Source: Marsupella aquatica
Taxonomy: Eukaryota > Plantae > Marchantiophyta
Reading direction: 5' to 3'
Assembly (NCBI GenBank): GCA_973895155.1
Contig: OZ316891.1
Location: forward strand, 4,435,708 to 4,499,707
DNA: 64,000 nt
A model generated the notes under the pieces. That model ran no database searches. It worked only from the letters and a program-made list of their open reading frames with translations, and was not told the origin of the DNA. This document shows positions 213-62,197 of this stretch, piece after piece. Position numbers and translations under genes: made by a program. The first letter of the stretch is position 1. Each line of letters opens with the position of its first letter.

Positions 213-3200
213 TGTCGCACCCCTACCCTGGGCCTTAAATCCGGGTTAGTGTCGTGGTGTGACCTTGACCACCAGTAGGGGTGAGGGTTCGGGCAAGGAG
301 GTGTGTAGTGACCTTCATTAGCCCTAAGTCGGGCTAAACCGCTATACTTACTGGTATAACACTCGCATAATTTGTACTTGACATAGGTATATTTATTTTC
401 CACCGCTGGAATTTTCCCTCAGTTAGTGACGCAGACTAACTCCCGACTTGGGGCTTTTCAAGCCATCGACGTGACAGGAACTTGTGACATGCAATGAGTG
501 GCAATCCCTACCATTAGTCTGCACCCGGTACATCCCTTAAAATGGCGCCTTTGCCCGGACAAAGCATACACACAACACCAGTTACTCTCAGAAACATTAG
601 GGGGAAAAGACTACATTTACTCAGCGAAGCATCAGTTTACATGGTTGACTCGACTTCAAAGGGGGTCAGCAGGCCCAACGGCAGTCGATGCCCAGTCTCT
701 ATGAGGCCCTGCCTCGCACTTGCCCAGCAAGCTCGACTCTGGCTCTCACTCCTTGGTACGCTCTGACCCTACTCAGGCCGGGACTCCCCGTGCCTCGCCT
801 TTCTTTTGCTGAGATAACTAAGCCTTCTCCCCCTTCCCATCGCGGAAGGGGAAGCCTAAATACTACCATAGCGGAAGAGAACCGGAGGATACTACCTTCC
901 GGGGTACTACCTACTGACTAACTAACTGCTGACTACTGGTCGCGCTGCACTGACCGGTTGACCGTCGACTACGAGTGTGCCAACCGGAATGGCAGCGGCC
1001 AAGCCTACTGACAAACTCTAGTCCGTTGATGGACTCAATCCTACGTTGGCTGATCCTAATTGACCGGCCCTAATTCTTCCTACTGCCGCTAATTGGCGCC
1101 TAATGACATTCATTCTGTCGTTACGCCTAACTAAAAGATGCCGCTGACTTAACCGCCTCGCACGGCGCCTGCTTCTACCCTTTGCTAACTACCCCTTATG
1201 TGTGTGCAGTGGTTGGACCAGGGCTGGTCCCCTTGTCGGGGCGAGACCTCGAGCCGCCTTGATCAGAGGTGGGCCCAGGTTTTCCCCGCTAGAGGACGAG
1301 CAGGGTGACGCGGTCCTGCAAAGCCTTGTTGTTCCGTAATGCTTCCTCTGCCTCGTTTGTAGCTTCATCGGCTTCAGTCTGGAGCCGCGCCACCTCCAAG
1401 TTGAGCTGGTCGATGGTGTCGCGATGGACCTGGTCCTGTGCTAGCAATTTATCTCATTCGGCGGAGAGACTAGCCACCTGCTGTGCTGCCTACAGAAATT
1501 GTTTGTTGAGGTCGGTCAGGCTGGTAACCCGAGCCAAAGATTCTGAGCGTAATTGAAGCACGGTGTCGTCTAGCTTCTTGAGTTCGGCCTGCGCTCCGCT
1601 CAACTCCTGGGTTAGTCCGTCCCTCTGTTCGACAGTGCGGACTAAATCCTCGCGGCGGGTCGTTGCCTCTTCCTCGAGGTGCTCTACCAGCATCTGGAGA
1701 TGCCCGATCTCATTCCCCTTCGCCATGAGTCCTTCTTCCAAGCGGCTGACGATCCGTGGTTGGTGCTCTAACATGAAGAAGGCTGGCTGAAAGTACGCCG
1801 AGGCTTGTTGTCCGATGTATGTCGCCAACTCCCCAGACATAGTCTGGCTAAACTTCTGGACCAGGTCGTAGGCCATGGTCCCCGGGGCTACTTGGTAGTC
1901 CTCCATCCTCTCGGGTACCGGTGGTTCCTCGGCAGGGGCAATGAGCTCCTCCGTAGTCAGCGCTGGGGAGGGGAAGGTTTCTTCAGGTGGTGGAGGGATT
2001 GGGGGTGGTTGTACTGCAGGTAGCGGAGGCTCAACGGAAGGAGGCGGTGGAATTTCCACAGAGGGCGGTTGCGGAGTATTAGTCGGGGCTTCCGGCTCGG
2101 GGTTTGTCCGAGGGACAGTAGTCCGCGTAGTCGGGGTTGCCTCCTCTGGGGCGGGAGTGACATTATCCGGGGCTGAGGTGGCCGTATTCTTTCCTCTGGC
2201 CTCCCGCCGTGCCTTGTACCAGGCGAGGATAATGGCGATATGACTTCCCAAGTAAGTCTTCCCTCCAATAGCCATACCACCCTGAGCCCGCTTCAGCTCC
2301 CCCGAGAATCTTTGGTAGAAGAATTGGGCCCAGTTTCGTTGTTTATACTGTTCCACTTGCACGATCGTGCAGAGGGAAATCTCGGATCGTGGCTCAATCA
2401 TGTGTAGGGTAGTCCGTATGAAGTTAAGCCGCTCCATACAGGTTAAGTTGGTGCACGTCCCCTGCTTGTATCCGTTGTCCGTCTTACCCTCGGGTTTGAA
2501 GTGCCGCGGCGTATACTCCTTATCCCGAATTCGGATTTCCACCGGCACCGGCCCGGTTGGTAGGCCGAAAATTTGCGTTAACCGATGCTCCGTGAGTGAT
2601 AAGGTCTGCCCCGAAACCTTGGTGGTCGACGCATCAGTGTCGAAATTGGAGATGAACTCACAAATCTCCTTCGCCCCGGCGGCGCACGGCCTCCATAGTA
2701 AGTGGGCGAACCGCTCCAACTGATGCTCCTTGAGATAGTCCGCATGTTCAAGTTTCTTGATCGCGATCCAGACTACCTCGGGGACGCGGATTACCTGTAA
2801 TAAGTTGGACTTCGGGTTATCCGGGGGCCGTCGGGTCTGGTTGGTCGGGGGGTTTGCCGGGGCAGGTGCAGGCGCGGCGTCGGTCCGTGTTGATTCAGGG
2901 GCCGTCGTAGTCCTTGACCGCTTACGAGGATGCTGTTCGAGTTGCGGACTAGCTCGCTCGGAACCCGAAGGACACTCCGCGTTGATTACTGGACGGACTT
3001 GGGACTGGTTCGGCAGTACTCCGGTGGTCATCGGTTGAGGCGCTGGGGTAGCCATATCCCAATTGAAGGCGTTGGAGCTTTCCCCGAGGAACGTGAGATT
3101 ACGTGCCACTTCCCGTTGTCTGCTGATGTCTTCTTGGCACTTTTCGGCTGCGATTTGCTGGTCTAGGTACCTCGGAATCTTGTTGAACTCCGCTTGAGTA

Positions 3201-4050
3201 AGCCGCTGGTTGCCCTTCAGCTTAAAGAACTTAGCTGGAACCTCAAGAATCGCCTCTGCTACCGATCTAAGCCCTTCCTCGCTGAGATATAGTTCGGTGA
3301 TGTAGTCTCGCAGCTCGTTATAGCTAGAATCCCTGGTGATGGCTGTCCTTTCGCAATTAACCAGTGCTACCTTGGTTACCAGCTTCGCGTACCTTCGTTC
3401 GTAAGCGGCTTTCTCGGGGCAAGAGTACCAGTAAGTCTCGGAGAACTTAGCACCTACCTCACCAAACAAGGTCCAAAATCCCAAGGCTGTGAGGGTCATA
3501 CTAACCTCGTAGTCCGGTTCATTGCGTCCACGTTCCCACCTGGCTAGTCCTTTTTCGCGGAGGCCTCGCTCATCCTGACTAAATCTCGCCACATTCCGCT
3601 CTTCTCCCTCGATAATTTCCTCGTAAAGGTCGACTGGATTCAATCAAAAAGGCGAGCGGATGGCAGCGTTCGTGAATTCCAAAAAGGTAAACGTGAGCGA
3701 ATGGCCCGCAGTGCCATCGGCTCCTCTCTTATGGGGGTGCCAGGACGAGCCCGAGCGTGAGAAGGTCAGGCTGTTTGGTCATTAATAACGAGCTAAAGTC
3801 GGCGTCTCGGTCCAAGCGTGATTCTTCTAACTGATTTTTACTCCGCTGCCGCCACCGTACCTCGGTCGTGCGTAATAATCCCTTTCCTGAACTCGTAATT
3901 ATTCGATTATCTTAACCTACTCCTAATCTAATCATAATGGCAACTTGGCGGCTATACGTGCTATTCTACGCTATGGCTACGGTCCTTATGACCGTATAAG
4001 TCCTAATCTTCGACCTGGGTTCGGTCAAGTGACATGTTGCCCATGTCACA
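213..4050 (-). mobile_element. Solo LTR, family A (3838 bp), carrying an internal ORF
   Basis: TG...CA termini (tgtcgcac...atgtcaca); 5-bp TSD CCAGG at 208-212 and 4051-4055; interrupts a transposase frame; no gag/pol. Strand taken from the internal ORF. Confidence 0.9.
1196..3643 (-). CDS. LTR-A-encoded protein: conserved N-terminal domain, plant-transposon-protein-like (PF20167/PMD-related) domain, Pro-rich linker, coiled coil; premature stops near the C-terminus
   Basis: 717-aa open frame 1490-3643. It continues in frame past three stops to 1196 with EVARLQTEA (LTR-C has EMARLQTKA). Motifs EFISNF, IFGLPTG, DNGY, NWAQFF, IGGKTYLGSHI. Confidence 0.8.
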
Positions 4051-13086: not shown

Positions 13087-16000
13087 TGTGGTGCGTCCCA
13101 TGGCTCCCTAAACCCAAGAAACCCCCCAGCTCAAGCCGATTCCCGCAGGTTTCGTGCTTGGCGAGGCCGTTTCCGCGGCTTAGCGGCATGGGACGCTGCT
13201 AACCTTCTACTACTACTATTAACATTTTACACACATATACTGGACAGATCCTTCATCGGGTCATGAGATACGTAGCCGGCCTAATATAGGCCTTCCCCTG
13301 TCTTCCCCTGTCTTCCCCTCCGTCTTGTTAGGTATGTTTGGATTCCGCCGCCGGAATGATCCCCAATAGGCTTGGTTAAGCCGCTAAGACCTCTCTCAGC
13401 TCGACACATCCAACTCTCACTCCCCTGCTTACTTTCCTTCCTTCTGTTGATGTGGGCACTCTTCACACAAGTTAATGCGACACACAAATAGCAAAATGAC
13501 TCATTCTGACTGAGTCATACCATGCACTTGCCATACAAACAGTACATCTCATACACAAGTTCTGCGAACTAAGCCGTGAGGCCAACTCTATTCAGCTCTT
13601 AGGCATGAGGAAACATGAATATACACAAGGGTCACTGTATGACTAACCGAGAGCTTCTCGTACTACTTGATCCCAGCCCGGCTGGTGCAAACTAAAAACT
13701 TGCTAAAGAAGAGGCCCTGAGCTCCCCGCTGCCCAGGTACTTATCCTGGTAGTGGATCCGCCATTCTTTGCATCGTAAGCCTAATCTACTTAACAGTAAT
13801 CTACTTGCCCGAATCTACCTATGTACAGCAAGGCAGGAGCATAAGTGTTGCTCCTACCAGTGGGACCGCAATCCCACTAAGCTAAGTGTCAGGGCCGCTC
13901 CTGGTTCTGATCCTAATCCTAAACGTGGAGATCCGTGCCCGCCCTGCCCACTCACGCCTCCTCCCTCCACGTCCGCCCTCCCTAAAAGGAACGGCGCCCT
14001 TGCACCGTCACGACACCGGTGGTGGATCCTCAATGGACGCCCCCAACACTTCCTCCTCAGCCACTGCCGTTGGCCCGCCTACTGACAGATTACCTGCCCT
14101 TGACCGAGTCAACTCTCCATCGGCCTGACTGGGTCCACCTTTGGCTTCAGCCTCGACAACTCCCACGGCTTCGGCTTCAGCCACCCCCACGGCTTCGGCT
14201 TTAGCCAACCCCACGGCTTCGGCCTCCCCTTCCCCTAGGGTAGTTGGATCCTTAGCCGTGACCCTGTCTGGGGTCGGTGCTGGGTCTACCTCCTTGATCA
14301 CCACGGCCTATGAAGTCGTATTACTCCTTGACCCTGAAGGTTTCCGCTTCTTCTTCGTTGGTGGCTCGGCAGCTGGTCCCTTCCCCTTCCCACTTACCTC
14401 CGGCACTGGTGCAGGTGGCGCGGCTTGTCCTTCGGCAATTACCACCCCTGGTAACTGGTTTGTCCCAACAGGAGATGGACCTGCTGCAGCTAAGCATTTA
14501 AATACTGCGGCTTGTTTCTTCAGCCGCTCTGTTTGGTTGTCGGCCCGCCGCTGTAGGTTCTCCATCTTCCTCGTGATTTCCTCCAACTCCTCTTGGGTTT
14601 CATCCAGGTCCTTACGTGCCCCCTCCAGCTCGTTTTTGGCCTCCTCCTGCTCCCTGTGGGCTTCCTCCAATTCCTTCTTCAAGGTAGCCTTCTCCTCCTG
14701 GGTTGCTCTTAGCTCCTTGTCGAGCTCTGCAATGATGACAGACTCCATCTGGTTCATCTTGGCGTAAGTCTGTTCGAGCATCTCGTCCTTCTCCCTTAGG
14801 TCGGCCTTGAAGCTGGCCGTCAGGGACGCAAGCTCCTGCTGCAGCGCCATAATCCCTTGATAGGATTTCCCTAACTCGACCTCCTTCTGCTCAAGGGCTC
14901 CGCGGATTTTCTCGAGCTCCCCTTTCAACGCCCATTCCTTTCTTTGGGTCTCCGCCATGGCCCGGCTGTTGGCTGTTATGTGGGCCTCCTCTGTATTCTT
15001 CAGCTCTTGCTTCCACTTTTCCCTTTCTTTGATCGTGTCGGCCAACTCTTCCTGCGTCTGAGTCAGTTTATCCTTGATATTCTGATTATCAGCCTGCGCG
15101 GCGTCCAACTGCCCCTGCATGATGTTCAGCTCATGTCGTTTAATCTGCAGTTCATCTTGGGCTTTCTTGGCCGCCCTTAGATCTTCAATCTCGGCTCCCA
15201 TCCTCCTAAGCCGCCGAATGACCTCGTCCTTCTTGCTTCTCTCTAAAGCCACCGCTTCTTCTAATTGGTGCTTCTCCAACTGCTCCCTATGGAAAAAGGG
15301 TCCTACCTCCAACTCCTCTCCAAAGATGCCGAGCGCAAGTTCCCCACACATCTCACCATACTCCATGGCTCTATTCTTAGCGTAGGTGGAGTAAGTAGAA
15401 GTGATCGGCATCGCCCATCGTGGCCTCTGCTCCCAAGCCGTCCTGCGGATCTCTTCAATCGTGGCTAGAGGTTTGCTTCCTTTTTTGGCTAGCCGCCTGA
15501 TGTCCTCCGGCCAATCTCCTCCTGGTAAATCCTTTTCCTTAGCCAGGGCGGCCTCTTCCTCCTGCTTGATTCGCTCCTGAAATTCCTGCACCGTCTGTTT
15601 TATGCCGTCGAAGCTCGGGGGAGCAACATCTGGTGGGGGAGACTCAGGGCTACTCTGCTTGTTGGGGTCCCCTCGCACTACCCTTGGAAGTGTGGGGACA
15701 AACCGGCCACAGGTCCTTACTCCTGGAACGTGATGGTCCGACCCATAGCCGGAATTATCATGGCTGCAGTCCTCCACTGCCTCCTCTACCTCTTGGATTT
15801 CTGGCTTCTCCCTCTCCTCTTCCTCGGTAGGAGCTTCAGGCAATTCTGCCTCAGATTCGGAGCTTGAGGTTCCCACGTACATTCGAACACCTGGCTTGGA
15901 TTCCGGCCTGATTCTCTCCTTGTCTCCAGCAAAGGGGTTTTCTCTTGTGAGCCGGTGTAGGCCTACCTCTGTAGTAGTGTCCTGCATTGTTGCCGTTGCC

Positions 16001-17734
16001 GTTGTTGTTGCCGATGCTGATTTCTTTTCTTTCTCCAGTAGTTTCAGCAGACTCTGCATGCCTGGTTGCTGCATCGGCAAGTCTTCCTTCCTGGGCCTAA
16101 ACACCTGCTCGATCGTAGGACTAACAGGTGGTTGAGGCTTCTCAGCCAACGGCCTCGGCGTTGGAGCTTCCTCAGGTGCCCTTACCTGCAGGGGAAGTAC
16201 CGGGGCAAAAGTCTGACCTCTGGCATACCGGCACAACAGCGGCATGTGATAGCCAAGCCGCGACACGCTCCCCATGCCGATTACCTGCTGCTCCTCCTTT
16301 AAGATCTTCTTCAATTGGTTGAGGAGGTACCCGTTGTAGTCCCGGCTTGGGTCTGGCCTTTCTGCCAGATAGACCTGTGCCTTGCCGATCTCTGCCCTCG
16401 GCAAGTTACAATGCATGGTCACCCGCAAGAAGTCGATCATCTCTCCTATGTGCGGGTTGGTGCAGGTGTTCCGGAAGAAGCCATTCTTCGTTGATGGCCC
16501 GGGGAACGACCGGAACTCCTTGTCAGGCAAGGTCTTCCTGGTATCAACTTTGGTCTTATTGCCCATCGGCAAGCCAAACACTTCGGCAATCACCTTGGGA
16601 GTAAGATAGAAATCCTTCCCATATATCCTCGTGCAATTGGTCTCGGGTTCCCATGACCCCACGAATTCTAATAGGTCTGACTCCGGTACCTCCGGCTTCA
16701 GCCATGGTAATCTTACAAAGGCCTCCAAGCCGGATCCGGCCATGAAGCCTTGGTACTTCTTGGTCTGCATGGCCGTAAAGCATGCATCCTCCTCCCGTGC
16801 AAAATGTAGTTGCACCTCCACCGGTAGGGTTGCCGCCCAGCCCTTCCAGGTGTCATCCCTGGTTGGAATGGCCTTGATGGGATCGACCTCCTCCTCTTCG
16901 GCTTCTCCCTGCCTCCTGCTCTGCTGCTCGGCTGGCTTCTTTGGTGCCGCCGACCTCGTTCTTTTTGCCGGGGTGGCTTCATCGTTGACGGCTCCCTTCC
17001 TCTTCATCTCTGCTGCCGTGGAGGTTTCTCCTAGCACCGTTGCCTGGGTCCACCTTTCCGTGCTACCCTTTAATTCCCAGTGTATGTCGTTGCAGTTCTT
17101 GATGGCCTCTCGGATGCCAACGACGCTGTCTTTGCAAAACAGAAGATCGTCGAGTTGATTGGAAGTAGGCGTCCACAGGAACTCGTCCTTGATGAGTTCG
17201 CCTCCTAAGAAAGCCGTCTTCTGCAGCTCCCACAATCGAGCGAGCTCCTGCCGTTCTCGAGCTGCCCTTTCTGACTCCTCGTCCTCGTAAGTCTTGATGT
17301 ACTCAGTTGCCCGTTCGAACAGGCATCCCCAGAAATGTGCCGCTTGATTGACGTTGCTCATACCCTCCTTAGGTTGATCGTCGGTATCTACTCTCTCCCC
17401 GAGTGCTTGCCTAAGCAGCTGACAGTAGTTGGCCTCCCGTAGTCGTCTGCCTAGTTCGTGCTCGCAAATGAGCCACCATCTCCTGCAAGCGCTCCTTACC
17501 CCTCTCCTCTGCCGGTCCTTCTTCCCGTTGATCCTTCCTAGCCGCCGACGCTTAACGCGCCCTAACCCTAATCGGGTTTTCACCCTCAACCTTACCTCTG
17601 GCCTCTGCCCGGGTTCCATGGTTGCCCCTAATTGTTTATATTTTCCTTGTTTTGTCACTATACTAAGGTGTTCCTAGGGTGCCTTCCTGCTTTACCCACT
17701 TAACCGGCCGAGTGATTCCTGTCTAGGCATCACA
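13087..17734 (-). mobile_element. Solo LTR, family B (4648 bp), carrying an internal ORF
   Basis: TG...CA termini; TSD CACTT at 13082-13086 and 17735-17739; reverse-complement match along nearly its whole length to the 5' LTR of the gypsy element at 46270-54961. Confidence 0.95.
14008..17658 (-). CDS. LTR-B-encoded protein (~1200 aa): N-terminal domain, PF20167/PMD-like domain, acidic linker, long coiled coil, basic NLS-like tail
   Basis: 1116-aa open frame 14308-17658 plus an in-frame 100-codon tail to 14008 after a single TAG (Gln in the second copy: TTS*AV vs LTPQAV). True start probably a downstream ATG. Confidence 0.85.
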
Positions 17735-41842: not shown

Positions 41843-42658
41843 TTGCTCAGTGTTGACCTCTTGGCACTGCCCGATAGGCTTGTCATACCATGACTTTCGC
41901 CTTCAAAAATTGCGTCGTTCTCTTTTTTCTTTCTCTTCTTGGGATTCATTGATCTTGGCGCCCCGCTTGGCGCCGCACTGGTGGCATCTCGCTAAAATTG
42001 ATGGCAGCTCCTACAACACGATGAGCTTTTGAACGTAAGTTCAAAACAATATTTCATAAGTTAAAGAGGCCATGATCCAAGTTAAATGAGGCTCTAGATG
42101 GCAAAAATTCATGTGGGAACACCCGCACTCAGGCAAACCAAAAATGGAGTCTAACAACATTGAGATGTCGCGCGGATTACCCTTTACCAACGAGGTGAAC
42201 ACCCTACATTGCACAAGACGGTCGCCAAGCTTTTTGCTAGTTCTATGGATGATCTTTAGAATTCGTCGAATCCGCTTGAGGCCAGAAGCTCTCTTGTAAA
42301 CCTGAAGCAAACCCGCAAAACATTACCGCAGATAGTCGACAGCCCTTCAATTCCCTGGCTTCAAGGACATGGCTCCCTGCCTCTTCCGTAGAGTCCTAGC
42401 TGAGCCTAGCTAGGACTCCTTAGTCTACGCGTAATTAAGTATTTTGAAATTCAAATCGCTACTTAAGTCCTGTTTCATTGGTATTCATTACCACTTGGAC
42501 TTCCTTTTAAGTCCTTTTGTCCTTAACCATTGAATCATTAATGGATGCTACTCCTAATCAAACCTCCTGGCACGCTTCCAAATGGACTGCTGGAGAATCT
42601 ACTGAGTGAGAGGTCACAGGGTCGAAGAGACATGCCTCTTCATACCCCTCAAAATTTT

Positions 42659-46269: not shown

Positions 46270-46941
46270 TGTGATGCCTAGCCAGGAATCACTCGGCCAG
46301 TTAAGTGGGTAAAGCAGGAATGCACCCTAGAAACACCTTAGTATAGGGACAAAACAAGGAAAATATAAACAATTAGGGGCGACTATGGAACCCGGGCCGA
46401 GGCCGGAGGTAAGGACGCTGGGGGTGAAAACTCGATTAGGGTTAGGGCACGCTAAGCGTCGGCGGCTAGGAAGGATCAACGGAAGGAAGGACCGGAAGAG
46501 GAGAGGGGTAAGGACCACTCGCGAGGAATAGTGGCTCATTTGCAAGAACAAACTGGGCAGACGACTACGGGAGGCCAAATGCTGTCAGCTGCTTAGACAA
46601 GCACTCGGGGTGGGAACAGATACCAACGATCGACTCAAGGAGGGTATGAGCAACGTCAATCAAGCGGCACATTTCTGGGGATGCCTGTTCGAACGGGCAA
46701 CTGAGTACATCAAGACTTACGAGGACAAAGAATCAAAAAGGGCAGCTCGAGAACCATAGGAGCTCGCTCGATTGTGGGAGCTGCAGAAGACGGCTTTCTT
46801 AGGAGGCAAACTCATCAAGGCCGAGTTCTTGTGGACTCCTACTTCCAATCAGCTCGACGATCTTCTGTTTTGCAAAGACAGAATCATCGGCATTCGAGAG
46901 GCCATCAAGAACTGCAACGACATACACTGGGAATTGAAGGG

Positions 46942-49900
46942 TGTGACGCCGCCGGTACGGCGGTTAATGAGTGATTCAGTCTAACTGCGCTCGGCACGCG
47001 CGTTAGGTGGGTCTTAGGCCGCTATTATTAGCATAACGACAGTATTTAGGTAATCATTAGGGGTAGGACATCATTAGGCAATAAGGGGGACTTCAGGTTT
47101 GGGCTGGCGGCGGGTCGCTATTCGCACACCCGGGTTACGAGCGTGGAGGGGCCCCTCCCTCGGGTCCGTATAACAAACTTAAGGAAGCGGCCACTGACGC
47201 ACGCTGACTCAGACCGGCGGAGTGGCCGGTACACCACAAGCCTGAGCGGTTCAACCTATGGGCGTCGAGGAGACGTCGGGGATCGACAAGCCCTCAAAGT
47301 ATAAAAGGGGAGCCAACCCTTTGTAGTGCACCAGTCCATCAGTCCGCGTGCCAGCTTCGACCCCAGCTCTCTCGTTCTCTCTAGGTCGCCACTACTATCT
47401 CCTCTGAATGTCGCACACGATCCTCTCCAGCTCGGCCATTCGATTCTGGACGCAGTTCCTATCTACCGGAAGGCACTTGGCCGATTCATTGAAACACGCC
47501 AACCCACGCCGATACGAGATCGAACGCGAATACGAGAGAGCCATCCGCCTAGTAGGACGACACTACTACGTCCTTAACTTTGACTACCCGTCTCAGAGCG
47601 AGCTTTACCGACCAGCTGAGGTATCTGGGTACTTCTTCAACGGAGACAAATATATCGGGTTCTGGGAAGCATTGCTTCGGCTTCCGGACGAGGTCTTCAA
47701 TATCCCGGGTACAATCGACCTGCAGTGACATCACTTCGACCACATCCCTGCCCAGGTTTGGGCTGTCATTAACGGCGAGTCCAGTACCAACCGTTCGACA
47801 AGGGCGTCCGCACTCACTTCGGAGAACTTCTACCAGCACCTGCAGAGCTTTATGGGAACTCGGCCATCAACCAACATGACCAACTCAGCCGGGCCCGTAC
47901 CCGTACCCGTACCCGTACCCGTACCCGTGCCCATGCAACCCCAGCCTCAGCCGCAGCCTAGCCAAACCCCACCACCTATCACCCAGCCAGCATAGGTACG
48001 CTCCGTCATCAACGCTGTGGATCTTAGCAATGACGACGAGGCTACCCCACCCTTGACCAGGCGGCCCAGAGGAACAAGCGCTCGGGGGGCCGACACTATA
48101 TCGTCCCCACCCCCTGCTCTGACCCCAGGAGCGGCCCCAGCAGACAACATGGTGACCGTGGCCGCCCCGGGCCCGTTACCAACCGCAGTGGCACTCCCCA
48201 GGCCCGATCGGGAGGATGGGGAAGTATCACCTTCCCCGAGTCAGTCACGGGGAAAGAAAAGGAAGGAATCCGCCACTGCATCCGGGTTACCGTTGGCCAC
48301 GGTAGTCGTAGCCAAGGTGACGATGCATCGCATGGGGGAAAACGTTCACAGCAACATCCTCCATCCCAAGCATGCGGTGTACCTGAAGACTCAGGGATTT
48401 GAGCACCTCGCCTCTCTCCCCTGGAACACTTGCAGGTACTACGGGGAGGACATGACAGAATTCGTCAAGAATTATGACGACGTACGTCAACAGACTCGGC
48501 TGCGGGGAAGGAATATGTCCCTCACAGAAGAACGGCTCAAGATGATCTTCGGGTTACCCGAAGGTGACCATCGAGTCGAATCACGGGCTCCCGGGGGCAA
48601 GGGGGCCAAGTACCAATCTTCAAGTTTTCCCTCAGAGGGATCAGTAGACAACGGGTTCGTGATGAGGACCTGCCTCATGCCTGAGATAGCTGAGCGGCTG
48701 GAGTTCCAGAGGTACGCTCTCCACATGATGGAACCCCGGGGGGAGATCTCCGCCGCCCAGGTTATCCAGGTCAAGAACTATCGACCTAGGAAATGGGCGT
48801 CGTACTTCGCTAAGAAATTCCATGAAGAGATGGAGCGGCGAAGGAAGACGCTGTACATTGGCGGGAAGGCGTATTTTGCTAGCCATATCGAAATCATTCT
48901 TGAGTGGTACGCCCGGTTTGATCGACGAACCCTTCCCCGCATCAACGTTACAAAGCTGGTCCCAGCTAGGTGGGTTTTTCCGGCATTGGAGAGACGGCCC
49001 CAACCCGAGGCCCGAAGTCCAGTGGACACACCAGCTTCACCCACCCCACCTCCACAAATAGCTGTAATCGTAACCGAGGAGGCGCCGGAGGGGTCGGTCG
49101 TCGCAACCGTTGATGCGACCCAACTAGCCGGGCTAAGTACAGAAGTTGGTACGGCAGAGGTCTTACCCGAACCCGGGTCTCCCAAGGACCCGCCGGTGGC
49201 AATTCTGGAGAACCGGACATCGCTGCAGGAGGACACTCCAGCCCCTTCCAACGTTATGTCCCCAGGGCTGGACGTCACTGCCCCGGCCCCTGCGCGTGTT
49301 GATGTCTGCCCGTGCCCAAATCCGGACAGGCACAACTTGGACCACCCGGAACTCTTCGTACAGGGTACATTTCTGAACGGGCTTCTGGGAGATTTCTCTC
49401 ATCAAATTGCCCGGGATACCGGGGAGTTCATGGCCCGGAAGGTAGCCTATTTCTTCAATCAGGAGTTGGTTGCCGCCGTAAAGGCAGGTCGGGCCCAGTC
49501 GGAGGCCCTTCAGAGGATAGAGCGGTACCGGGTGGAGTCCGTGTACCTAAAGAACGAAGTGGCGGCTCAAGAGGCTGAGCTTCTGCAACTACGACCCAAG
49601 GTTGCAGCCGCCGATGAGTTGTTAGCAAAGGCATACGCTCTTACCGCCCTAGCCGAACAGGCCAAAGTTGGGAACGAGGCCGAGATTACACGACTCCGGA
49701 ACCAGATTGACAGTTTGAAGAAACAAGTTGTCACCTGGCAGAAAGACCTGGAGGAAGCCGAGGAGCGAGCCCAGCGGGACGCGACAGAGATAGCCACGCT
49801 GCAGGCCGAGATGGCGCGGCTCCAAACCAAGGCCGAGAAGCAGGACCAGCTGGCGAGTAAACTGACGAGCGACGCCCAGCAGCTGGAGGAGGCATGTCAG

Positions 49901-50947
49901 GAGGCAGCAGAGGAGACGGACGCGGCGAGGCGAGAGAACGAATCTCTGCTGGACCAGGTCCAGCTCCTCAAGGCGGACAATGACAGGCTTCGAAGGCAGC
50001 GGGATGGCCGTTCCCATTCGTGCGGCTCTGGCAAGCGTGCCAGGCATTAGTGGCGGAGTAGGAATAGATTAGGATTAGGATTGGCTTAGTCAGGCTGTTG
50101 GGACAGGCACCTGCCTTAGGTACAGCAGCGCTGCCCTGCTGTCCAGCCTGCGTAGATTAGGATCTTCTAATAAGACACAGCCGTTTTCCGGCCTGACTGT
50201 CAGCTTAGTTAGGACCTTAGTCAACGAATCTTCGGCGAGAGGACACCCCGTTCCTCGGCTCTTAGTATTTAGTGCACCCCTCGGTAGAGGCAGGGGGGGT
50301 TTTTAGTTTCAGGGTCGGACATCCGCGGGACATGCGGGGAGTCCCGACCTCTGGGAATGACAGAGTACCAAGGGGAGGGGGTAGGACTAAGCTCGCCGGG
50401 CGAGTGCGGAGCCGGGCTCCCTTGTAGTGTGCACCCTCGGCCTTGAACCTATGCATTCCAGGGCTGTCGTGTCAACTAAGTGTACGCATATGTTCCCTTT
50501 GTAGTAAAATCCTTTCCCATCATTTTCCTTCGTGTAAATCGAGATTGTATGCATGTGTGCGCATATGTGTGTGGGTTTCTCATATATGGGTGGCAGCGCC
50601 AGGCCGAACGCACTACCCGAGACGTGCACAGGGTGCAGCCTGCGGGTAAGTGGTTGCGAGCACGGGTTGAGGACCTGTATCATCGAATCCGGATCAAAGG
50701 CGGACAGCACGAAGGCTTAGAAGCCCTTAAGCCAGGGTCGATCCTGCTATCGACTAAGGTACGTTCCGGCGGCGGAACACAAACCATACCTAGGAGGTGT
50801 CCGTATTTAGCAGTATGCGCACTTAGCGCTAGTTTACGAGAATAAGGTGCATTACGTGCTTCCCTTCCTGCCCGAACCCTCAGATTTACGAGGGATGTGC
50901 CCGTCTAAGCTGAAGTCTGAGTTAAGGCCGAAGCCTACGACGTGACA
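46942..50947 (+). mobile_element. Solo LTR, family C (4006 bp), carrying an internal ORF
   Basis: tgtgacg...cgtgaca termini; TSD AAGGG at 46937-46941 and 50948-50952; the empty site is visible in the solo LTR-B copy; TATAAAA at ~47300. Confidence 0.95.
47408..50050 (+). CDS. LTR-C-encoded protein (~880 codons, two in-frame stops), homologous to the LTR-A and LTR-B proteins
   Basis: ORFs 47408-47728 and 48017-50050 share a frame; *VRSVINA matches QVRPVINA in LTR-A; motifs IFGLPEG, DNGF, HMMEPRGEIS, KWASYF, IGGKAYFASHI; C-terminal coiled coil; (CCCGTA)n at ~47894-47930. Confidence 0.82.
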
Positions 50948-53900
50948 AAGGGTAGCACGGAAAGGTGGACCCAGGCAACGGTGCTAGGAGAAACCTCCAC
51001 GACAGCAGAGATGAAGAGGAAGGGAGCCGTCAACGATGAAGCCACCCCGGAAAAAAGAACAAGGTCGGCGGCACCAAAGAAGCCAGCCCAACAGCAGAGC
51101 AGGAGGCAGGGAGAAGCCGAAGAGGAGGAGGTCGATCCCATCAATGCCATTCCAACCAGGGATGACACCTGGAAAGGCTGGGCGGCAACCCTACCAGTGG
51201 AGGTGCAACTACATTTTGCACGGGAGGAGGATGCATGCTTTACGGCCATGCAGACCAAGAAGTACCAAGGCTTCATGGCCGGATCCGGCTTAGAGGCCTT
51301 TGTAAGATTACCATGGCTGAAGCCGGAGGTGCCGGATTCAGACCTATTAGAATTCGTGGGGTCATGGGAACCCGAGACCAATTGCACGAGGATATATGGG
51401 AAGGATTTCTATCTTACTCCCAAGGTGATTGCCGAAGTGTTTGGCTTGCCAATAGGCAATAAGACCAAGGTTGATACTAGGAAGACCTTGCCTGACAAAG
51501 AGTTCCGGTCGTTCCCCGGGCCATCAACGAAGAATGGCTTCTTCCGGAACACCTGCACCAACCCGCACATAGGAGAGATGATAGACTTCTTTCGGGTGAC
51601 CATGCATTGTAACTTGTCGAGGGCAGAGATCGGCAAGGCACAGGTCTATCTGGCAAAGAGGCCAGACCCAAGCCGGGATTACAACGGGTACCTCCTCAAC
51701 CAATTGAAGAAAATCTTAAAGGAGGAGCAGCAGGTAATCGGCATGGGGAGCGTGTCGCGGCTTGGCTATCACATGCCGCTGTTGTGCCGGTATGCCAGAG
51801 GTCAGACCTTTGCCCCAGTACTTCCCCTGCAGGTAAGGGCACCTGAGGAAGCTCCAGCACCGAGGCCCGTAGCAGAGAAGCCTCAACCACCTGTTAGCCC
51901 TACGATTGAGCAGGTGTTTAGGCCAAGGAAGGAAGACTTGCCAATGCAGCAACCAAGCATGCAGAATCTGCTGAAAATGCTGGAGAAGGAAAAGATGGCA
52001 CCGGCACCGGCTTCGGCAGCGGCACCAATACAGGACACTGCCCCAGAGGTCAACCTAAGCAGACTTAGAAGGGAAAACTCCTTTACCGGAAACAAGGAGA
52101 GAATCAGGCCAGAATCCAAGCCGGGTGTTCGAATGTACGTGGGAGTCTCAAGCTCTGAATCTGAGGTAGAATTGCCTGAAGCTCCTACCGACGAGGAGGA
52201 GAGGGAGAAGCTGGAAGTCCAAGAAGTAGAGGAGGCAGTGGAGGACTGCAGCCATGATAACTCCGACTATGGGTCGGACCATCACATTCCAGGAGTAAGG
52301 ACCTGTGGCCGGTTTATCCCCACACTTCCAAGGGTAGTACGAGGGGACCCCAACCAGCAGAGTAGACCTAAGTCTCCCCACCAGATGTTGCTCCCCCGAG
52401 CTTTGACGGCATAAAACAGACGGCGCAGGAATTTCAGGAGCGAATCAGGCAGGAAGAGGAGGCAGCCCTGGCTAGGGAAAAGGATTTGCCAGGAGGAGAT
52501 TGGCCAGAGGACATCAGGCGGCTAGCCAAAAAAGGAAGCAAACCTCTAGCCACGATTGAAGAGATCCGCAAGACGGCTTGGGAACAGAGGCCGCGATGGA
52601 CGATGCCGATCACTTCTACTTACTCCACCTACGCTAAGAATAGAGCCATGGAGTATGGTGAGATATGTGGGGAACTTGCGCTCGACATCTTTGGGGAGGA
52701 GTTGGAGGTAGGACCCTTTTTCCATAGGGAGCAGTTGGAGAAGCACCAATTAGAAGAAGCGGTGGCTTTAGAGAGAAGCAAGAAGGACGAGGTCATCCGG
52801 CGGCTTAGGAGGATGGAAGCCGAGATTGAAGATCTAAGGGCGGCCAAGAAAGCCCAAGATGAACTGCGGATTAAGCGGCATGAGCTGAACATCATGCAGG
52901 GGCAGTTGGACACCGCGCAGGCTAATAATCAGATTATCAAGGATAAACTGACTCAGACCCAGGGAGAATTGGCCGACGCAATCAAGGACAGGGAGAAATG
53001 GAAGAAGGAGCTGAGAGACGCAGAGGAGGCCCATATAGCAGTCAACAACCGGGTCACGGCGGAGACTCAGAGAAGGGAGAGGGCGCTGAAGGGAGAGCTC
53101 GAGGTCATCCGCAGAGCCCTTGAGCAGAAGGAGGCCGAGTTAGGGAAATCCTATCAAGGGATTATTGCGCTACAGCAGGAGCTTGCGTCCCTGACGGCCA
53201 GCTTCAGGGCCGACCTGCGGGAGAAGGACGCCCAACTCGACCAGACTTATGCCAAGATGAATAACATGGAGTCTGAGGTCGTAGCGGAGCTCGACAAGGA
53301 GCTAAGAGCAACCCAGGAGGAGAGGGCTACCACCAAGAAGGAATTGGAGGAAGCCCACAGGGAATTGGAGGAAGCCAAAAACAAGCTGGAGGAGGCACGT
53401 AAGGACCTGGATGAGACCCAGGAGGAGTTGGAGGAAATCACGAGGAAGATGGAGAACCTACAGCGGCGGGCCGACAACCAAACAGAGCGGCTGAAGAAAC
53501 AAGCCGCAGTATTTAAATGCTTAGCTGCATCAGGTCCATCTCCCATTGGGGCAAACCAGTTACTCGGGGTGGTAATTGCCGAAGGACCAGCCGTGACACA
53601 CGGCCCGGTTCCGGACGTTGGTGGCAAGGGGAAGGAACCGACTGTGGAGATAGTGAAGAAGAAGAAGCAGAAACCTTCGGGGCCCGGAGGTTATTTGACC
53701 CCTCAAGCCGTACTCAAACCGGCACCAACCTCCAGCATGAACACGGCAATAGATCTCGCTATCACCAAAGGTGGGGATGGCGCGGCCCAAGCCAAACTAC
53801 TCAGTAATGAGGCCGGTATCCCAGATCCGCCTCTTGAGCAGGCCGGGGAGACCGTAGCCGAGGCTGAGGCCGTAGCCGAGAATGATTCCCGAGCCAATGC

Positions 53901-54963
53901 CGATGCCAATGGTGGACCCAGTCAGGCCGATGGAGAGTTGACTCAGTCAAGGGTAGGTAATCTGTCAGAGAATGAACCTACGGCAGTGGCTGAGGAGGAA
54001 GCGTTGGGGGCGTCCATTAAGGATCCACCACCGGTGTCATGACGGTGCAAGGGCGCCGTTCCTTTTAGGAAGGGCGGACGTGGAGGTAGGAGGCATGAGT
54101 GGGCAGGGCGGGCGCTGATCTCCAAGTTTAGGATTAGGATCAGGACCAGGAGCGGCCCTGACACTTAGCTTAGTGGGATTGCGGTTCCACTGGTAGGAGC
54201 AACACTAGTGCTCCTGCCTTGCTGTACATAGGTAGATCCGAGCAAATAGATTACTGTTAGGTAGATTAGGCTTACGCTGCAAAGAATTAGGCGGATCCAC
54301 TACCAGGATAAGTACCTGGGCAGCGGGGAGCTCAGGGCCTCTTCTTTAGCAAGTTTTTAGTTTGCACCAGCCGGGCTGGGATCAAGTAGTAAGAGAAGCT
54401 CTCGGTTAGTCATACCGTGACCTTGTGTATATTCATGTTTCCTCATGCCTAAGAGCTGAATAGAGTTGGCCTCACGGCTTAGTTCGCAGAGCTTGTGTAT
54501 GAGATGTACTATTTGTATGGCAAGTGCATGGTATGACTCAGTCAGAAGGAGTCATTTTGCTATTTGTGTGTCGCATTAACTTGTGTGAAGAGTGCCCACA
54601 TCAACCAACAGAAGGAAGGAAAGTAAGCAGGGGAGTGAGAGTTGGATGTGTCGAGCTGAGAGAGGTCTTAGCGGCTTAACCAAGCCTATTGGGGATCATT
54701 CCGGCGGCGGAATCCAAACATACCTAACCAGAAGGAGAGGAAGACAAGGGAAGGCCTAGATTAGGCCAGCTACGTATCTCATGACCCAATGAAGGATCTG
54801 TCCAGTATATGTGTGTAAAAGGCTAATAGTAATAGTAGAAGGAGGTTAGCAGCATCCCATGCCGCTAAGCCGCGGAAATGGCTTCGCCAATCCCAAAACC
54901 TGCGGGAATCGGCTTGCGCTGGGGGGTTTCTTGGGTTTAGGGAGCCATGGGACGCACCACATT

Positions 54964-54984
54964 TTTGGCGCTAGATGGAGGGGG
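54964..54984 (+). promoter_or_regulatory. Primer-binding site
   Basis: tttTGGCGCTAGATGGAGGGG right after the LTR-terminal CA; begins with TGG, complementary to tRNA CCA; cognate tRNA not determined. Confidence 0.8.
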
Positions 54985-55030
54985 CATTTCTTAAGCCGTG
55001 AGATATGAAGTTAGAAAGGAAGCATAGGTA

Positions 55031-57840
55031 ATGACTGACCTTACGCCGAGGGAAGAAAGAGTGATTCAACGAGAGAGAGCTCGACTGCAGCAGCTCGCCG
55101 GGTGGCATGATACACAACGACTGAGAGGAGCAGAAAGAGCTGGTAGCTCCGAAGCTGGAAGTGGCGTCGAAGAAGACATACCAGAAGAAGAGTCGGTAGG
55201 AAGAAACGAGTACCCAACCAACATGGGGGAACCAGAGGCGCGGCCAGACGAGAGGTCAGGGACCAGACTGAGCCAACGGTCGCGCATTCATTACAAAGCA
55301 TTTCATGGAAGAGGAGATGAGGATCCGGACGAATGGTTGGATGATTTCGAGGGAACCGCTGCAGCAAATGGAGAATCGGCCATCAAGATGCAGATTCTTC
55401 CCGGCCTGTTCAAGGGTGAGGCTAGGCCTTGGTACAGAGCATTAGATGTGGAAGATCAAGCCATCTGGGATATCTTCAAAACACTCTTTGTTAAGGAGTT
55501 TCGACCCATTGGAACTTCAGAACTAGCAGTGCTGAAGTTGGGACGACTTCGGTTCAAGGAGAACAAATCCTTCAGGAAGTTCTTGCAACGCTTTCAGAAA
55601 CTAGTAAGATGTACAAAGACCAATGCATCTGAAGGTATGCAACTTCAATGGTTGGTGAATGCTTTGCCATAGAAGATGAGTTTTGCAATTAGGAAGGAGA
55701 ACCCGGAGACCTTGGCCGAGGCAATTAAGGATATTCAATTATACATTAATGCAGATATCACAAGCCGGAAGAAACAGCTTAAGTCTGAGAGTTCCTCATC
55801 AGAGGAGGGATCACCCCATAAGAAAAAAGATAAGAAGAAGAAACATTCTAAGAAGTCAAGAAGTGATAACTCAAGCTCGGATAGTGGAAGTAGCAAGAGT
55901 GAGTCATCTTCTAGTTCTGAAGAAGAAAGGCCAGAAGGAGAGGGAAGACGAAAGTCAAGCTGGAGGCTAAGCCACCAGATAACATCGTGGCCCTTACCGA
56001 GCAACTTAAGGCTATAATTGCAGAGGTAAAACCAAAGAAGAAGGTAGTACAGGAGGATAGCTCTGTATGGTGTGCCTTATGTTATAAAACCGGACACCAT
56101 AAAGATGCGTGTCCTAAACTTAATACTAATCATGTTCGGCATGTGGCCGAGATCAGACCCTATCAGGGAGAAGTAGAGTACTTTCTAGGAGATGCCGCTG
56201 ATAGTGTTTTCGGCATCAGTGAGACTGGAGCACGAGACCTATCCAACAGACCTGCATCTCTATGGTCAGGATTAAGGAACAACCCGGGAGAGATGTATCC
56301 TCGGATTATTCAGAACCCGTCAGTACCTCCTAGGCCGAATGTACAGAGATTTGCGGCATGCTATAATTGTGGTCAACCTGGCCACTTTGCTAGAGAGTGC
56401 CCGAATGCACGCAAACAAGGTGATGGACAACCAGCTCAGCTATGTATGGGATGTAGACAGGAGGGTCACATGCTAGGACAATGTCCTACTTGGTTGGCAG
56501 GCCTGGCCGCAAATCATAAGCTCTTACCAATTAAGGTCTTACCGCCAGGTACTACCCCCGGAGGAGTTCAAATCAACCACATCAAGCTAGGATGGCAAGC
56601 GGATGCCGAGGCAGAGTTCGTACCATCTGATGATGAGGCCGAAGCCCTATCAACCTTCTCAGAAGAGGATTTAGATCATGATTGCTACCGGGTCTCTACT
56701 CGATCAACCAGAAGGAAGGAAAGGTGGGATGGGCTGGCCAAAAATAAAGTTCAGGAAGAAAAAATCGACTTTTCGTCAACATCAACAGAAGGAGAAGGAA
56801 GGGCACCGTCAATACAGGCAAGCCATGAGCCCACCAGTGAACCCAATCCTTCACAAGATAGCGACTTCAATCAAGATCATCCTAAGTTGTTCTACCCCTC
56901 TGTTACGGCTAGTGTTAAGGAACAACTGAGAGAATTAGAAACCCTGGAGAATACCGAAGCCATTGCCAAGGATGTGAAACGAGCAAAAGCATTGTTTGCT
57001 TCGGAGGATCCAACAGCTGTGGAGACTAGCGTGGCGAAACAGGCCGAATCCAAGATGGAGACACCACTAGAGGAAAAGCCGATTGTTCCCTATGACCTGG
57101 CTAAAGATGTACTAGAATCTAGAGTCTCGGCAACAGTAGGTCAACTATTGAAAAATAGCCCGTACTTCCGGAAGCAGTTAAGAAAGCCGATCCTCGGCAA
57201 GCCAAGATTACCCAAGGTAGCGACCAGATCCGACGTACTAATGATAGAAGAAGATCAAGAAGCCCCAGCATTACCATTAATGATTCAAGGAGAATTATTA
57301 CTATGGGTACCCATCGATGGAGGATCAGGGGTATGTATTATGATTGATTCAACAGCAAAAGGGTGGGGTCTAACACCAGAGATGACTGGAAGAGTGTTAA
57401 ACATGGCCAATGGATATCAGGTCATTCCCACGGGAGTGTTAACTGGCATCAAGACAGAGATAGGAGGTATCTTTTTTAGCATTAACTATGTAGTAATGAG
57501 GCCGGTAAATCCTACGTCATTCCGGCTATTGATTGGTAGGCCGTGGCTATACCTAGCCAAGGTAATAGAGGATTGGGGTAAGAAGGAGTTCACTTTTGGG
57601 ACCCCTTCTATCACGGTATCCTGGGATACCAAGGATGACCGCAGAAGAAGCATCAGGGAGGTAGACGGGTACGAAAGTGGACTGGAGTCAGCCGATGAAG
57701 TACGTTGGCTAGAATGCCTGGCTGACCAAACCGAAGAAAGTGTCTTTGGACCAGAGGTACCCCCAGCGGATTATGGCAAGAACCAATGGAAGGTGACTTG
57801 GAAGAAGAAGACGAAGAGGTCGAGGACTGCTTTACAATAG
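55031..57840 (+). pseudogene. gag: Gag (three CCHC zinc knuckles) and aspartic protease; one stop and frameshifts
   Basis: FHGRGDEDPDEWLDDFE...GEARPWY...W..FK..F capsid motif; CALC..GH....C, CYNCGQPGHFAREC, CMGCRQEGHMLGQC; protease IDGGSG...LLIGRPWL. Confidence 0.9.
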
Positions 57841-57907
57841 AATCCACCTTTTTAGCTGCAATTCCGGAGGAAGTAAAGGATGTAGACCAATTGGATGAAA
57901 CGGCTAA

Positions 57908-59415
57908 GTGGGGAGCAGTAGCAGGGACAGTGGATTTTCTGTAGGCATTGTGGTAGAGCCGACGGGGTCCACAACGCCATCGATCATCGGCAAGGAATTA
58001 AATACCAAGGGATCGGCATACAAGCCGATTACAAGGGCAGAACAAATTGAGGCCCTATTAGAAGCCGGGAGAGCACAGCGGCCTGACCCTCAGGAGCAAG
58101 AGGTGGATGAGATGCACAGACAAAATCCAGAGCCGAGGCAGGAAGGAAAACCGACTACCAATTCAAAACCGAATAGGCCGGCAAGGGGACAGTCTGTGGG
58201 CACCAAGGGAGAAATTGATTCGGCTAGTACAGCCGAGATTCCAGTTTATGGAGGTATGAGACTAGAGAGGCTGGAAGCCGAGCTGGACCCGAATTTGAAG
58301 AAGCAGATTAATATGATCCAAGCACGGCAATACCGGAAGCTCGACTTAGGAGAAGGAAGGGAACTAAACTTAGGGAGAGACCTAGCACCTGAGCTTGAGA
58401 AAGAGATCAGTGACTTACTGATTGACTTTCAAGATGTGTTTGCATGGAGTCACCAAGATCTAAAGGGAGTAGATCCAACATTAGGGGAACATCGAATTGA
58501 TCTCATGTTAGGAGCCAAATCATTCAGACAACCAATTCGAAGGATGAACCCGAAGTATTCCCTGCTGGTCAAAACGGAAATCGACAAACTAGTGGAAGCT
58601 GGATTCATCACTCCAGTCCTGCATTCAGACTGGGTGTCTCCAATTGTGATAGTTCCCAAGAAAGCTGGACCCGATGGTAAACCCAAGATCCGGGTTTGTC
58701 AGGATTACAGGAAACTGAATGAAGCGACGTTAAAAGACCATTTTCCCTTACCCTTTACTGATATGGTACTAGACATGGTAGCCAGTCATGAACTATATTC
58801 ATTCATGGATGGGTACTCTGGTTATAACCAAATTAGGATTCGGCAGGAAGACCAAATCAAGACGGCCTTCATCACGGAATGGGGGATCTATGTCTTCAAT
58901 CGTATGCCGTTTGGACTCTGTAATGCACTAGCTATGTTCCAACGATTGATGGTGAACATTTTTCATGATTACTTGAGAAAGCTCATGGAAATCTTCATTG
59001 ATGACTTTGCAGTATTCGGGAAGGCATCGAAACATGCTAAATATCTCAGGAAAACCTTCATGAGATGCAGAGAGGTAGGTCTCAAGTTACACCCAGATAA
59101 ATGTTTCTTTGCAGTAACCGAGGGGGTGCTACTAGGTCACAAGGTATCAAGGAAGGGCATTGAGATTGACAAAGGTAAGCTACCAGTATGGCTAGATATC
59201 ATGCAACCTAAGAACATAAAGGATGTAAGATCCTTCTTGGGATGCATTGGTTACTATCGCCGGTTCATCAAAGATTTTGCCAAGCTAGCTTTACCATTAA
59301 CCAACATGCTCAAGGCAGGAGCAGACTTCGAACCCACACCCGAACGAGTCACAGCGGTGGTAGAATTGAAGCAGATGTTAGTAGAGGCCCCAGTCATGAT
59401 AGCACCGGACTGGAA
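57908..59415 (+). pseudogene. pol: Reverse transcriptase, truncated before RNase H and integrase
   Basis: WVSPIVIVPKK, RVCQDYRKLN, FMDGYSGYNQI, MPFGLCNA, FIDDF, VRSFLG..GYYRRFIKDF; ends at APVMIAPDW. Confidence 0.93.
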
Positions 59416-60046
59416 CTCAGGGCCTCTTCTTTAGCAAGTTTTTAGTTTGCACCAGCCGGGCTGGGATCAAGTAGTAAGAGAAGCTCTCGGTTAGTCATAC
59501 CGTGACCTTGTGTATATTCATGTTTCCTCATGCCTAAGAGCTGAATAGAGTTGGCCTCACGACTTAGTTCGCAGAGCTTGTGTATGAGATGTACTATTTG
59601 TATGGCAAGTGCATGGTATGACTCAGTCAGAAGGAGTCATTTTGCTATTTGTGTGTCGCATTAACTTGTGTGAAGAGTGCCCACATCAACCAACAGAAGG
59701 AAGGAAAGTAAGCAGGGGAGTGAGAGTTGGATGTGTCGAGCTGAGAGAGGTCTTAGCGGCTTAACCAAGCCTATTGGGGATCATTTCGGCGGCGGAATCC
59801 AAACATACCTAACCAGAAGGAGAGGAAGACAAGGGAAGGCCTAGATTAGTCCGGCTACGTATCTCATGACCCGATGAAGGATCTGTCCAGTATATATGTG
59901 TAAAAGGCTAATAGTAATAGTAGAAGGAGGTTAGCAGCGTCCCATGCCGCTAAGCCGCGGAAACGGCCTCGCCAAGCATGAAACCTGCGGGAATCGGCTT
60001 GCGCTGGGGGGTTTCTTGGGTTTAGGGAGCCATGGGACGCACCACA
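59416..60046 (+). repeat. Remnant of the 3' LTR (last ~630 bp)
   Basis: Matches 54331-54961 with about 13 substitutions by manual count. Confidence 0.95.
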
Positions 60047-61878: not shown

Positions 61879-62197
61879 TTCATGTGTTCTAACTTAGTTT
61901 TTGAATAATATCAAACTTACATAACCAAGGGGTCCTCGAAATAATTGTGTTAAGACGGTTCATGTGTTCTAACCTAGTTTTTGAATAATATCAAACTTAC
62001 ATAACCAAGGGGTCCTCGAAATAATTGTGTTAAGACGGTTCATGTGTTATAACTTAGTTTTTGAATAATATCAAACTTACATAACCAAGGGATCCTCGAA
62101 ATAATTGTGTTAAGACGGTTCATGTGTTCTAACTTAGTTTTTGAATAATATCAAACTTACATAACCAAGGGGTCCTCGAAATAATTGTGTTAAGACG
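61879..62197. repeat. 80-bp tandem repeat, four near-identical copies
   Basis: Units start at 61879, 61959, 62039 and 62119, without spacers. Confidence 0.95.

Follow-up and report, generated by a model that had tools for sequence, protein, structure and literature searches.

Giant long terminal repeats carrying a gene with a predicted VANC-like core in an apparently Athila-like retrotransposon of Marsupella aquatica

Results

A large gene lies inside a 4.7-kb long terminal repeat

The stretch of Marsupella aquatica DNA analysed here (the window; 64,000 nt of contig OZ316891.1) holds a retrotransposon, family A, whose long terminal repeat (LTR) contains a large open reading frame (ORF) on the sense strand. 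Copies, target-site duplications (TSDs) and solo units were counted within that window. The family is represented by a solo LTR and by one element truncated at its 3' end, with the following parts.

13087..17734, minus strand: solo LTR of family A, 4648 bp, starting TGTGA and ending CCACA, TSD AAGTG
14008..17361, minus strand: ORF of the solo LTR, open for 1017 codons to a stop at 14308-14310, the homologous frame running on to 14008
46270..54961, plus strand: 5' LTR of family A, 4681 bp without its nested insert, TG..CA ends
46646..54042, plus strand: ORF of the 5' LTR, with a stop at 46757, an inserted family B unit of 4006 bp and a 1-bp deletion near 52375
54043..54961, plus strand: non-coding 3' part of the LTR, with a TTAG(G) cluster, a TGTA/T-rich stretch and a block common to families A, B and C
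54966..54983, plus strand: primer-binding site (PBS), starting TGG 4 nt past the LTR (CA at 54961, then TTTT)
55031..59416, plus strand: gag (Retrotrans_gag, zf-CCHC), protease-like region and reverse transcriptase (RT), decayed and cut at the boundary of RT and RNase H
59417..60046, plus strand: remnant of the 3' LTR, left by a private deletion of RNase H, integrase, polypurine tract (PPT) and about 4.05 kb of LTR, then TSD AGAAG

The family A unit is a true LTR. Self-comparison of the window aligns 13087-17734 (minus strand) with 46270-46942 plus 50947-54961 at 90-91%, and 54327-54961, the last 630-635 bp of the LTR, with 59412-60046 at 97.8%. Because the 4.65-kb unit has TG..CA ends and TSDs, and because a PBS lies 4 nt behind it, followed by gag, zinc knuckles and RT, we read it as a 5' LTR; TSD AGAAG flanks the entire element (46270-60046). 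Each of the four insertions described here has TG..CA ends and an exact 5-bp TSD (AAGTG, AGAAG, AAGGG and CCTGG). At 59416, contigs of other copies run on, in two of four runs, into a KDFHV.VDVS frame, which is the start of RNase H in the relative P0112, so the short 3' copy reflects a deletion that only the window element has suffered. The first-pass annotation of this DNA had called the unit a true LTR on the grounds that it ends at the CA just before the PBS, that its last 630 bp recur at the 3' end of the element, and that it also occurs alone with TG..CA ends and a 5-bp TSD; all of these observations are confirmed here, and the four sets of TSDs and the read-on into RNase H add to them. 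Full family A elements very probably hold two copies of the gene. Contigs add up to a greater depth over the LTR than over gag-pol, but such a sum does not give a copy number and carries no weight here. The PBS is presumably of the tRNA-Asn type, although attempts at verification turned up nothing.

Two other structures were considered and rejected: a true LTR of only 630 bp, which would have neither a TG start nor a TSD, and a split-repeat structure of the DIRS/Ngaro kind, which is contradicted by the TSDs and the gypsy RT.

Between 54768-54895 at the end of the 5' LTR and 59853-59980 in the 3' remnant there are 14 differences. Eight are private to the 5' LTR, the remnant agreeing with the solo copy at these sites, and five of the eight fall within 17 nt. 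These private differences suggest gene conversion or a recombinant element, and LTR dating is therefore unreliable at 46270-60046.

The family A gene is under purifying selection

The ORF at 46646..54042 is laid out as an FW domain, the predicted VANC-like core (about 51150-51840), an acidic and proline-rich linker and a long coiled coil. In the solo copy the frame is open for 1121 codons, stop to stop, and its stop falls about 100 codons short of the family's end.

Selection was estimated by the Nei-Gojobori method with bootstrap from one pair of family A copies over 1013 codons. The rates of nonsynonymous (dN) and synonymous (dS) substitution are 0.057 and 0.179, a dN/dS of 0.315 (95% interval 0.24-0.40), with 0.12 (0.03-0.31) in the core and 0.30 in the coiled coil; shifted-frame controls gave 0.96 and 1.35, and substitutions at codon positions 1, 2 and 3 number 69, 49 and 123. 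The family A LTR gene is thus under purifying selection, and the dN/dS comparison that the first-pass annotation had proposed did not return the neutral evolution that it had named as speaking against its reading.

The 84 codons between the first and the second ATG have a dN/dS of 1.25. We therefore place the start of the gene at the second ATG (17361, and 46646 in the other copy) and reject a start at the first, from which the sequence evolves neutrally and, in the second copy, is interrupted by a stop as well as an indel. The sense-strand ORF that the first-pass annotation put at about 3.6 kb is accordingly real and constrained, but shorter: from the second ATG it spans about 3.35 kb, or 72% of the LTR. 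In the copy at 46270..54961, where that annotation had located it, the ORF is present but broken by the stop, the insert and the deletion listed above. In all four runs, nearly the whole depth of contigs from other copies lacks the stop at 46757, which we therefore regard as recent damage.

Two further solo LTRs carry a homologous gene

The insert that splits the family A ORF is itself a solo LTR, and a third such unit lies near the start of the window. Both were missed by the first-pass annotation, whose reading of the unit stands for family A.

46942..50947, plus strand: nested solo LTR, family B, 4006 bp, TG..CA ends, TSD AAGGG, TATAAAA at 47300
47408..50050, plus strand: ORF of family B, homologous to that of A, with 27% identity in the core; stops interrupt the frame at 47726 and 47993
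213..4050, minus strand: solo LTR, family C, 3838 bp, TG..CA ends, TSD CCTGG
1289..3499, minus strand: ORF of family C, homologous to those of A and B, stops at 1492 and 1456

Contigs of other copies skip the family B insert in four of four runs. The ORFs of B and C are homologous to that of A (tblastn E 1e-15 to 1e-43), and the three have in common an N-terminal M..FW domain, a core of about 210 residues and a coiled-coil tail, although the cores are only 25-40% identical. Solo-LTR structure is shown for B and C, where LTR status rests on their ends, their TSDs and their homology to A. All three solo units in the window contain the gene, so solo-LTR formation does leave the gene behind, as the first-pass annotation had supposed, in copies that all carry lesions.

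The family C solo LTR cleanly splits, in frame, a transposase-like coding stretch on the minus strand (1-212 plus 4051-5207).

The core is predicted to have a VANC-like fold

We modelled the cores of A and B with AlphaFold2 at a mean predicted local distance difference test score of 90.0 and 91.2, respectively. Against 48,161 chains, the B model matched VANC21 with Z 8.1 (root-mean-square deviation 4.1, 206 residues aligned), the next best match having Z 2.2, and VANC21 also ranked first in Foldseek (E 0.014, prob 0.99). A second look with the A model, against 283 chains, gave VANC21 at Z 8.2 (deviation 4.2, 205 aligned). According to PMC5735166, VANC21 binds a short motif that has built up in the non-coding DNA of the transposon encoding it, and demethylates that transposon; VANCs are described as binding family-specific motifs. 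These models point to a core fold of the VANC-like DNA-binding type. The structure prediction and the profile search that had been suggested in the first-pass annotation thus both gave an answer, a match to VANC21 by predicted structure and coiled coils by sequence.

Among 42 homologs scanned, seven had sub-threshold matches to Transposase_32 (PF20167) and one a sub-threshold match to DUF1985; Atlas leads to DUF1985 and PMD clusters stayed below 0.9 (one at 0.89). A viral fold library returned nothing at E<=0.001, and a word-indexed search with the full A protein returned none among 7992 candidates.

Relatives suggest a route into the LTR

A profile built from four sequences retrieved 93 proteins (E<=0.001) from a set of 1.84 billion; the 28 that were looked up include nine from Calypogeia fissa, one from Riccia sorocarpa and one from Orobanche minor. 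Six proteins, of which two come from Calypogeia, show 59-65% identity to the window RT. In a quick RT tree of 103 rows, built without labelled REXdb references, the window RT falls in a clade of seven rows (SH-like approximate likelihood ratio test 98) that includes the two Calypogeia proteins and lies outside a clade of 49 angiosperm Athila-like rows, a placement that points to a liverwort host. The order gag, protease, RT, RNase H, integrase is complete in the relatives P0112 and L001, in neither of which an additional RNase H (RVT_3) or a chromodomain was matched; the window copy lacks RNase H and integrase. An additional archaeal-type RNase H is a mark of Tat elements (Ogre and Retand included), but liverwort Tat Z clades have none (PMC10508981). 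Phygy elements have a 4-bp TSD and an NCGN preference according to the consulted REXdb supplement (PMC6317226); membership in that lineage is ruled out by the 5-bp TSDs, which fit Athila. From these sequence features we place the family in an apparently Athila-like lineage of Ty3/gypsy.

A metagenome set of 80 loci, 35 of which reach the end of integrase, holds a clear homolog downstream of pol in three (L001-L003) and a weak match in L043; in a further locus, L009, 68 codons resemble L001 by eye only. The L002 ORF reaches 43.9 bits against a profile from which it had been left out (best of 603 shuffled or reversed controls, 8.0), and the L001 ORF is connected through that of L002 (blastp E 1.7e-22). 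In L001 the pol stop at 6061 is followed by a purine tract and then by TGTGGGAGC at 6148, the exact reverse complement of which occurs once in this locus, directly before the PBS. The homologous ORF of L001 begins about 500 nt inside the LTR, and the order is therefore pol, PPT, LTR with the ORF within it; the PPT before the 3' LTR, deleted from the window element, is seen here. L009 has the same order, with a TATA box ahead of the ORF.

Two other loci are arranged differently. L002 has two near-identical PPT-like tracts (3757 and 6560) around the ORF, with TG after the second only, so that its LTR measures about 1 kb and does not include the ORF. Short LTRs with an external ORF were what the first-pass annotation had held to speak against its reading; none was found for family A, and L002 is a distant relative. 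L003 has PPT-like tracts at 3367 and 5331 around the ORF, with TG after both. For L002, L003 and L009 the contigs are collapsed or partial, and their LTR ends are placed by motifs. Most simply, a PPT switch to the upstream tract put a 3' extra ORF into U3, which we consider probable, and relatives with one and with two PPT-like tracts make a plausible route for a fourfold growth of the LTR in a single step. Purine tracts also lie 580-640 nt from the LTR end in B and C, and weakly in A. A vestigial second PPT at the deletion point of the window element was rejected as a claim and is a hint only, since no TG follows the purine tracts.

Non-coding parts of the LTR are enriched in short motifs

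The last 920 non-coding nt diverge by 4% between the family A copies, which suggests constrained cis-elements, and a block TTCC.GCGG.GGAA..AAA.ATACCTA lies about 270 nt before the LTR end in A, B and C. TTAG occurs 58 times in the non-coding LTR parts of the three families together against 24 expected (z 7.3; shuffled 95% maximum 3.3), in clusters both before and after the ORF and nearly all on the sense strand. Other motifs stand out in the relatives: CCGGA (14 against about 1 expected) in the non-coding LTR of L001 and likewise of L009, and AGCGCT in that of L002. Subfamily-specific motifs of this kind fit the VANC pattern without proving it, and their link to the protein is purely a candidate one.

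Neighbouring features

The VANC-like domain has a fourth, decayed homolog at 44807-45325 (minus strand), which is nearest to the L001/L002 subfamily and lies upstream of transposase-like frames (38461-41902, minus strand) that have no Pfam match and may be Sola-like. A 16-bp inverted repeat (36058-36073/63363-63378) possibly delimits a large DNA element. A CACTA-type element (Transposase_21, DUF4218, DUF4216) follows frames with PHD-like fingers and BRCT domains at 24491-32929 (plus strand). Tandem units of about 250 bp at 8042-8707 contain telomere-like runs of TTAGGG/TTCTAGGG, and an 80-bp tandem repeat at 61879-62197 has four copies that are 97-100% identical. Decayed frames at 10869-13001 (plus strand) include a coiled coil and a RING-like Cys/His pattern; a homolog of the LTR ORF seen by eye near 11.3-11.7 kb was not found by the profile and is not claimed.

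Discussion

A proposed role for the LTR gene

We lean, by a narrow measure, towards a reading in which Athila-like elements with LTRs of 3.8-4.7 kb acquired, through a PPT switch, a VANC-fold gene whose product binds motifs of its own LTRs and counters silencing. A small promoter at the 5' end of the LTR would make the ORF mRNA, which would end at the LTR poly(A) site; genomic RNA would start in the 3' part of the LTR; and the protein would bind motifs in LTRs of its family and keep them open. Judging by the models, the protein likely binds DNA via its VANC-like core and oligomerises via its coiled coil. That its job is family-specific anti-silencing or trans-activation is something we propose tentatively, as a possibility that falls somewhat short of an expectation. 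A solo LTR would be a complete transcription unit if the ORF is driven by a promoter of its own and its mRNA ends at the poly(A) site of the LTR, and we think it rather likely that this is so.

An LTR retrotransposon is regarded as finished once it has been reduced to a solo LTR, whereas here that reduction leaves a whole accessory gene behind. A more speculative extension, and one that we consider doubtful, is that the LTR is an anti-silencing cassette (promoter, VANC-like gene, poly(A) site and target motifs), such that LTR-LTR recombination, more frequent between long LTRs, seeds trans-acting helper genes. Were this true, the host's main removal route would spread helper genes able to de-silence the remaining full elements in trans. 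Anti-silencing of the VANC type would also extend from DNA transposons of eudicots to retrotransposons of non-seed plants. The VANC-like fold and the candidate motifs allow a direct test of what extra ORFs do, and solo LTRs of such families can be annotated as unnamed host genes.

Several observations weigh against this reading. The dN/dS of 0.315 comes from a single pair of copies, and the selection that it reveals acted in the replicating lineage rather than on solo LTRs. All four ORF copies in the window are damaged by one or more stops or frameshifts, so that none is demonstrably functional. An intact element with two LTRs was not encountered for A, B or C, there being none in the window and no genome-wide look having been taken, and no internal sequence accompanies B or C in the window. 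Contigs at the start of the family A LTR gave no clear PPT junction before 46270: loose contig ends there agree at 0.5 (six contigs, X5) and 0.65 (two contigs, X6), and one X5 contig (depth 72.8) extends 18 letters upstream. As to the fold, for a helical domain a Z of about 8 with 9-11% identity ranks as middling, and a shared fold shows no function; the A model reached only E 1.2 and rank 4 in Foldseek, and the A and B models have most alignment rows in common. By sequence, Pfam gave only coiled coils for the window LTR ORFs (no DUF1985, PMD or Transposase_32), the profile against PDB gave coiled-coil matches only and no VANC, and hhalign to an Athila polyprotein with PF20167 returned a probability of 0.2. 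MAIN/MAIL proteins, which have the same fold, are host genes that act on host genes. Finally, no motif was enriched in L003, TTAG ranks only third or fourth in C alone, and the motif counts of A, B and C are not independent because the families are related.

Alternative explanations

The position in the LTR could be a neutral accident of PPT loss, with solo copies silenced and decaying and the gene used by full elements only, which is an appreciable possibility though we think it the less probable case. It would account for the lesions in every window copy and for the changes relative to other copies, which are mostly transitions, as expected from methylation decay. Against it, the layout is kept in three window families with such diverged cores and in a distant subfamily (L001, L009), at a cost of about 3.5 kb of extra LTR per end.

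Alternatively, the architecture could be as we describe and the protein could serve in RNA export or packaging, in integration targeting or as a particle or chromatin scaffold, as has been proposed for the env-like ORFs of Athila and the TRP28 ORFs of Retand. The coiled coil makes up about a quarter of the A protein, the VANC21 match is middling, and plant extra ORFs have no assigned functions (PMC7264820; PMC11963269 in its consulted part), all of which would suit such a role. We nevertheless judge it unlikely, given that the sole structural match is a DNA-bound anti-silencer, that the non-coding LTR parts are rich in short motifs specific to each family, and that the homolog at 44.8-45.3 kb, with no gag-pol match nearby, fits a job independent of reverse transcription.

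It is improbable that the ORF belongs to R or U5 and not to U3, such that a 5' promoter makes the genomic RNA and the ORF is its first cistron, resembling an Ogre-like 5' extra ORF. This arrangement would suit the TATA-like boxes upstream of the ORF (offset 95 in A and 359 in B, and also present in L009) and the lack of a clear TATA in the 3' non-coding part. It would, however, require the strong-stop DNA or the R region to be about 4 kb long, and it sits poorly with the second motif cluster after the ORF and with relatives that keep the homolog between pol and the 3' LTR.

That the unit is an independent TG..CA element placed beside a gag-pol fragment by chance has very little to recommend it beyond the missing intact second copy in the window, since the PBS lies 4 nt past its end, the same 3' end recurs after pol, one TSD encloses both, other copies run into RNase H and L001 has the layout directly.

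Comparison with known systems

The function of the extra ORFs in Athila, Tat and SIRE-type elements is a long-standing question, and a review assigns every additional ORF of plants to the internal region (PMC7264820). Both LTRs of up to about 5 kb and extra ORFs with PMD, TRP28 or Athila domains are known (PMC6317226, in its consulted part). Our literature search, which went by titles and opening lines of abstracts and whose coverage was partial with respect to subscription journals and REXdb supplements 1 and 3, turned up no description of a gene of this kind within an LTR of a plant.

Athila, which has a 3' sense extra ORF, is the nearest parallel. The window families share with it a 5-bp TSD, close relatives with no extra RNase H, a coiled-coil tail and, in 7 of 42 homologs, the weak matches to PF20167; the PBS of Athila is of the tRNA-Asp or tRNA-Asn type according to the consulted REXdb supplement 5 (PMC6317226). 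They differ in that the ORF lies inside TSD-bounded LTRs instead of between pol and the PPT or 3' LTR, and in an RT that belongs to the small clade with Calypogeia, apart from the angiosperms. The TRP28 ORFs of Retand are, in the part of PMC11963269 consulted, antisense and outside LTRs of 0.3-1.2 kb. PMD and TRP28 proteins resemble ours in having a helical domain associated with transposable elements followed by a coiled coil, and PMD (MAIN/MAIL1, Ogre) is reported to be structurally similar to the DUF1985 of VANC (bioRxiv 2024.09.27.615353 and PMC13547354, in the portions available).

With the VANC proteins of VANDAL (MuDR) transposons, the window proteins share the predicted core fold, a coiled coil, variable low-complexity linkers and short family-specific motifs in non-coding DNA. 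Unlike VANC, which the available portion of PMC13547354 terms dicot-specific, they are encoded in gypsy LTRs of non-seed plants and not in a MuDR DNA transposon, they have an extra N-terminal FW domain, their identity to VANC is 9-11%, and the window proteins have no DUF1985 match.

In LTR size (4-5 kb), Ogre and BAGY-1 are comparable, although no LTR-internal gene is described for them in the parts of PMC1142308 and PMC6317226 that were consulted. The gene family belongs to a known kind of accessory ORF, and its placement within the LTR is a genuine variant in architecture that appears, on the literature covered, to be new. Retroviruses offer the other precedent: sag of mouse mammary tumour virus (MMTV) and the overlaps of nef and bel with U3 place coding sequence in the LTR, and hence twice in the provirus and also in solo LTRs. 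Those proteins are unrelated to the ones described here, and their coding sequences are about 1 kb or less, whereas the genes of the window LTRs comprise 2.2-3.4 kb of coding sequence and occupy 58-72% of the LTR.

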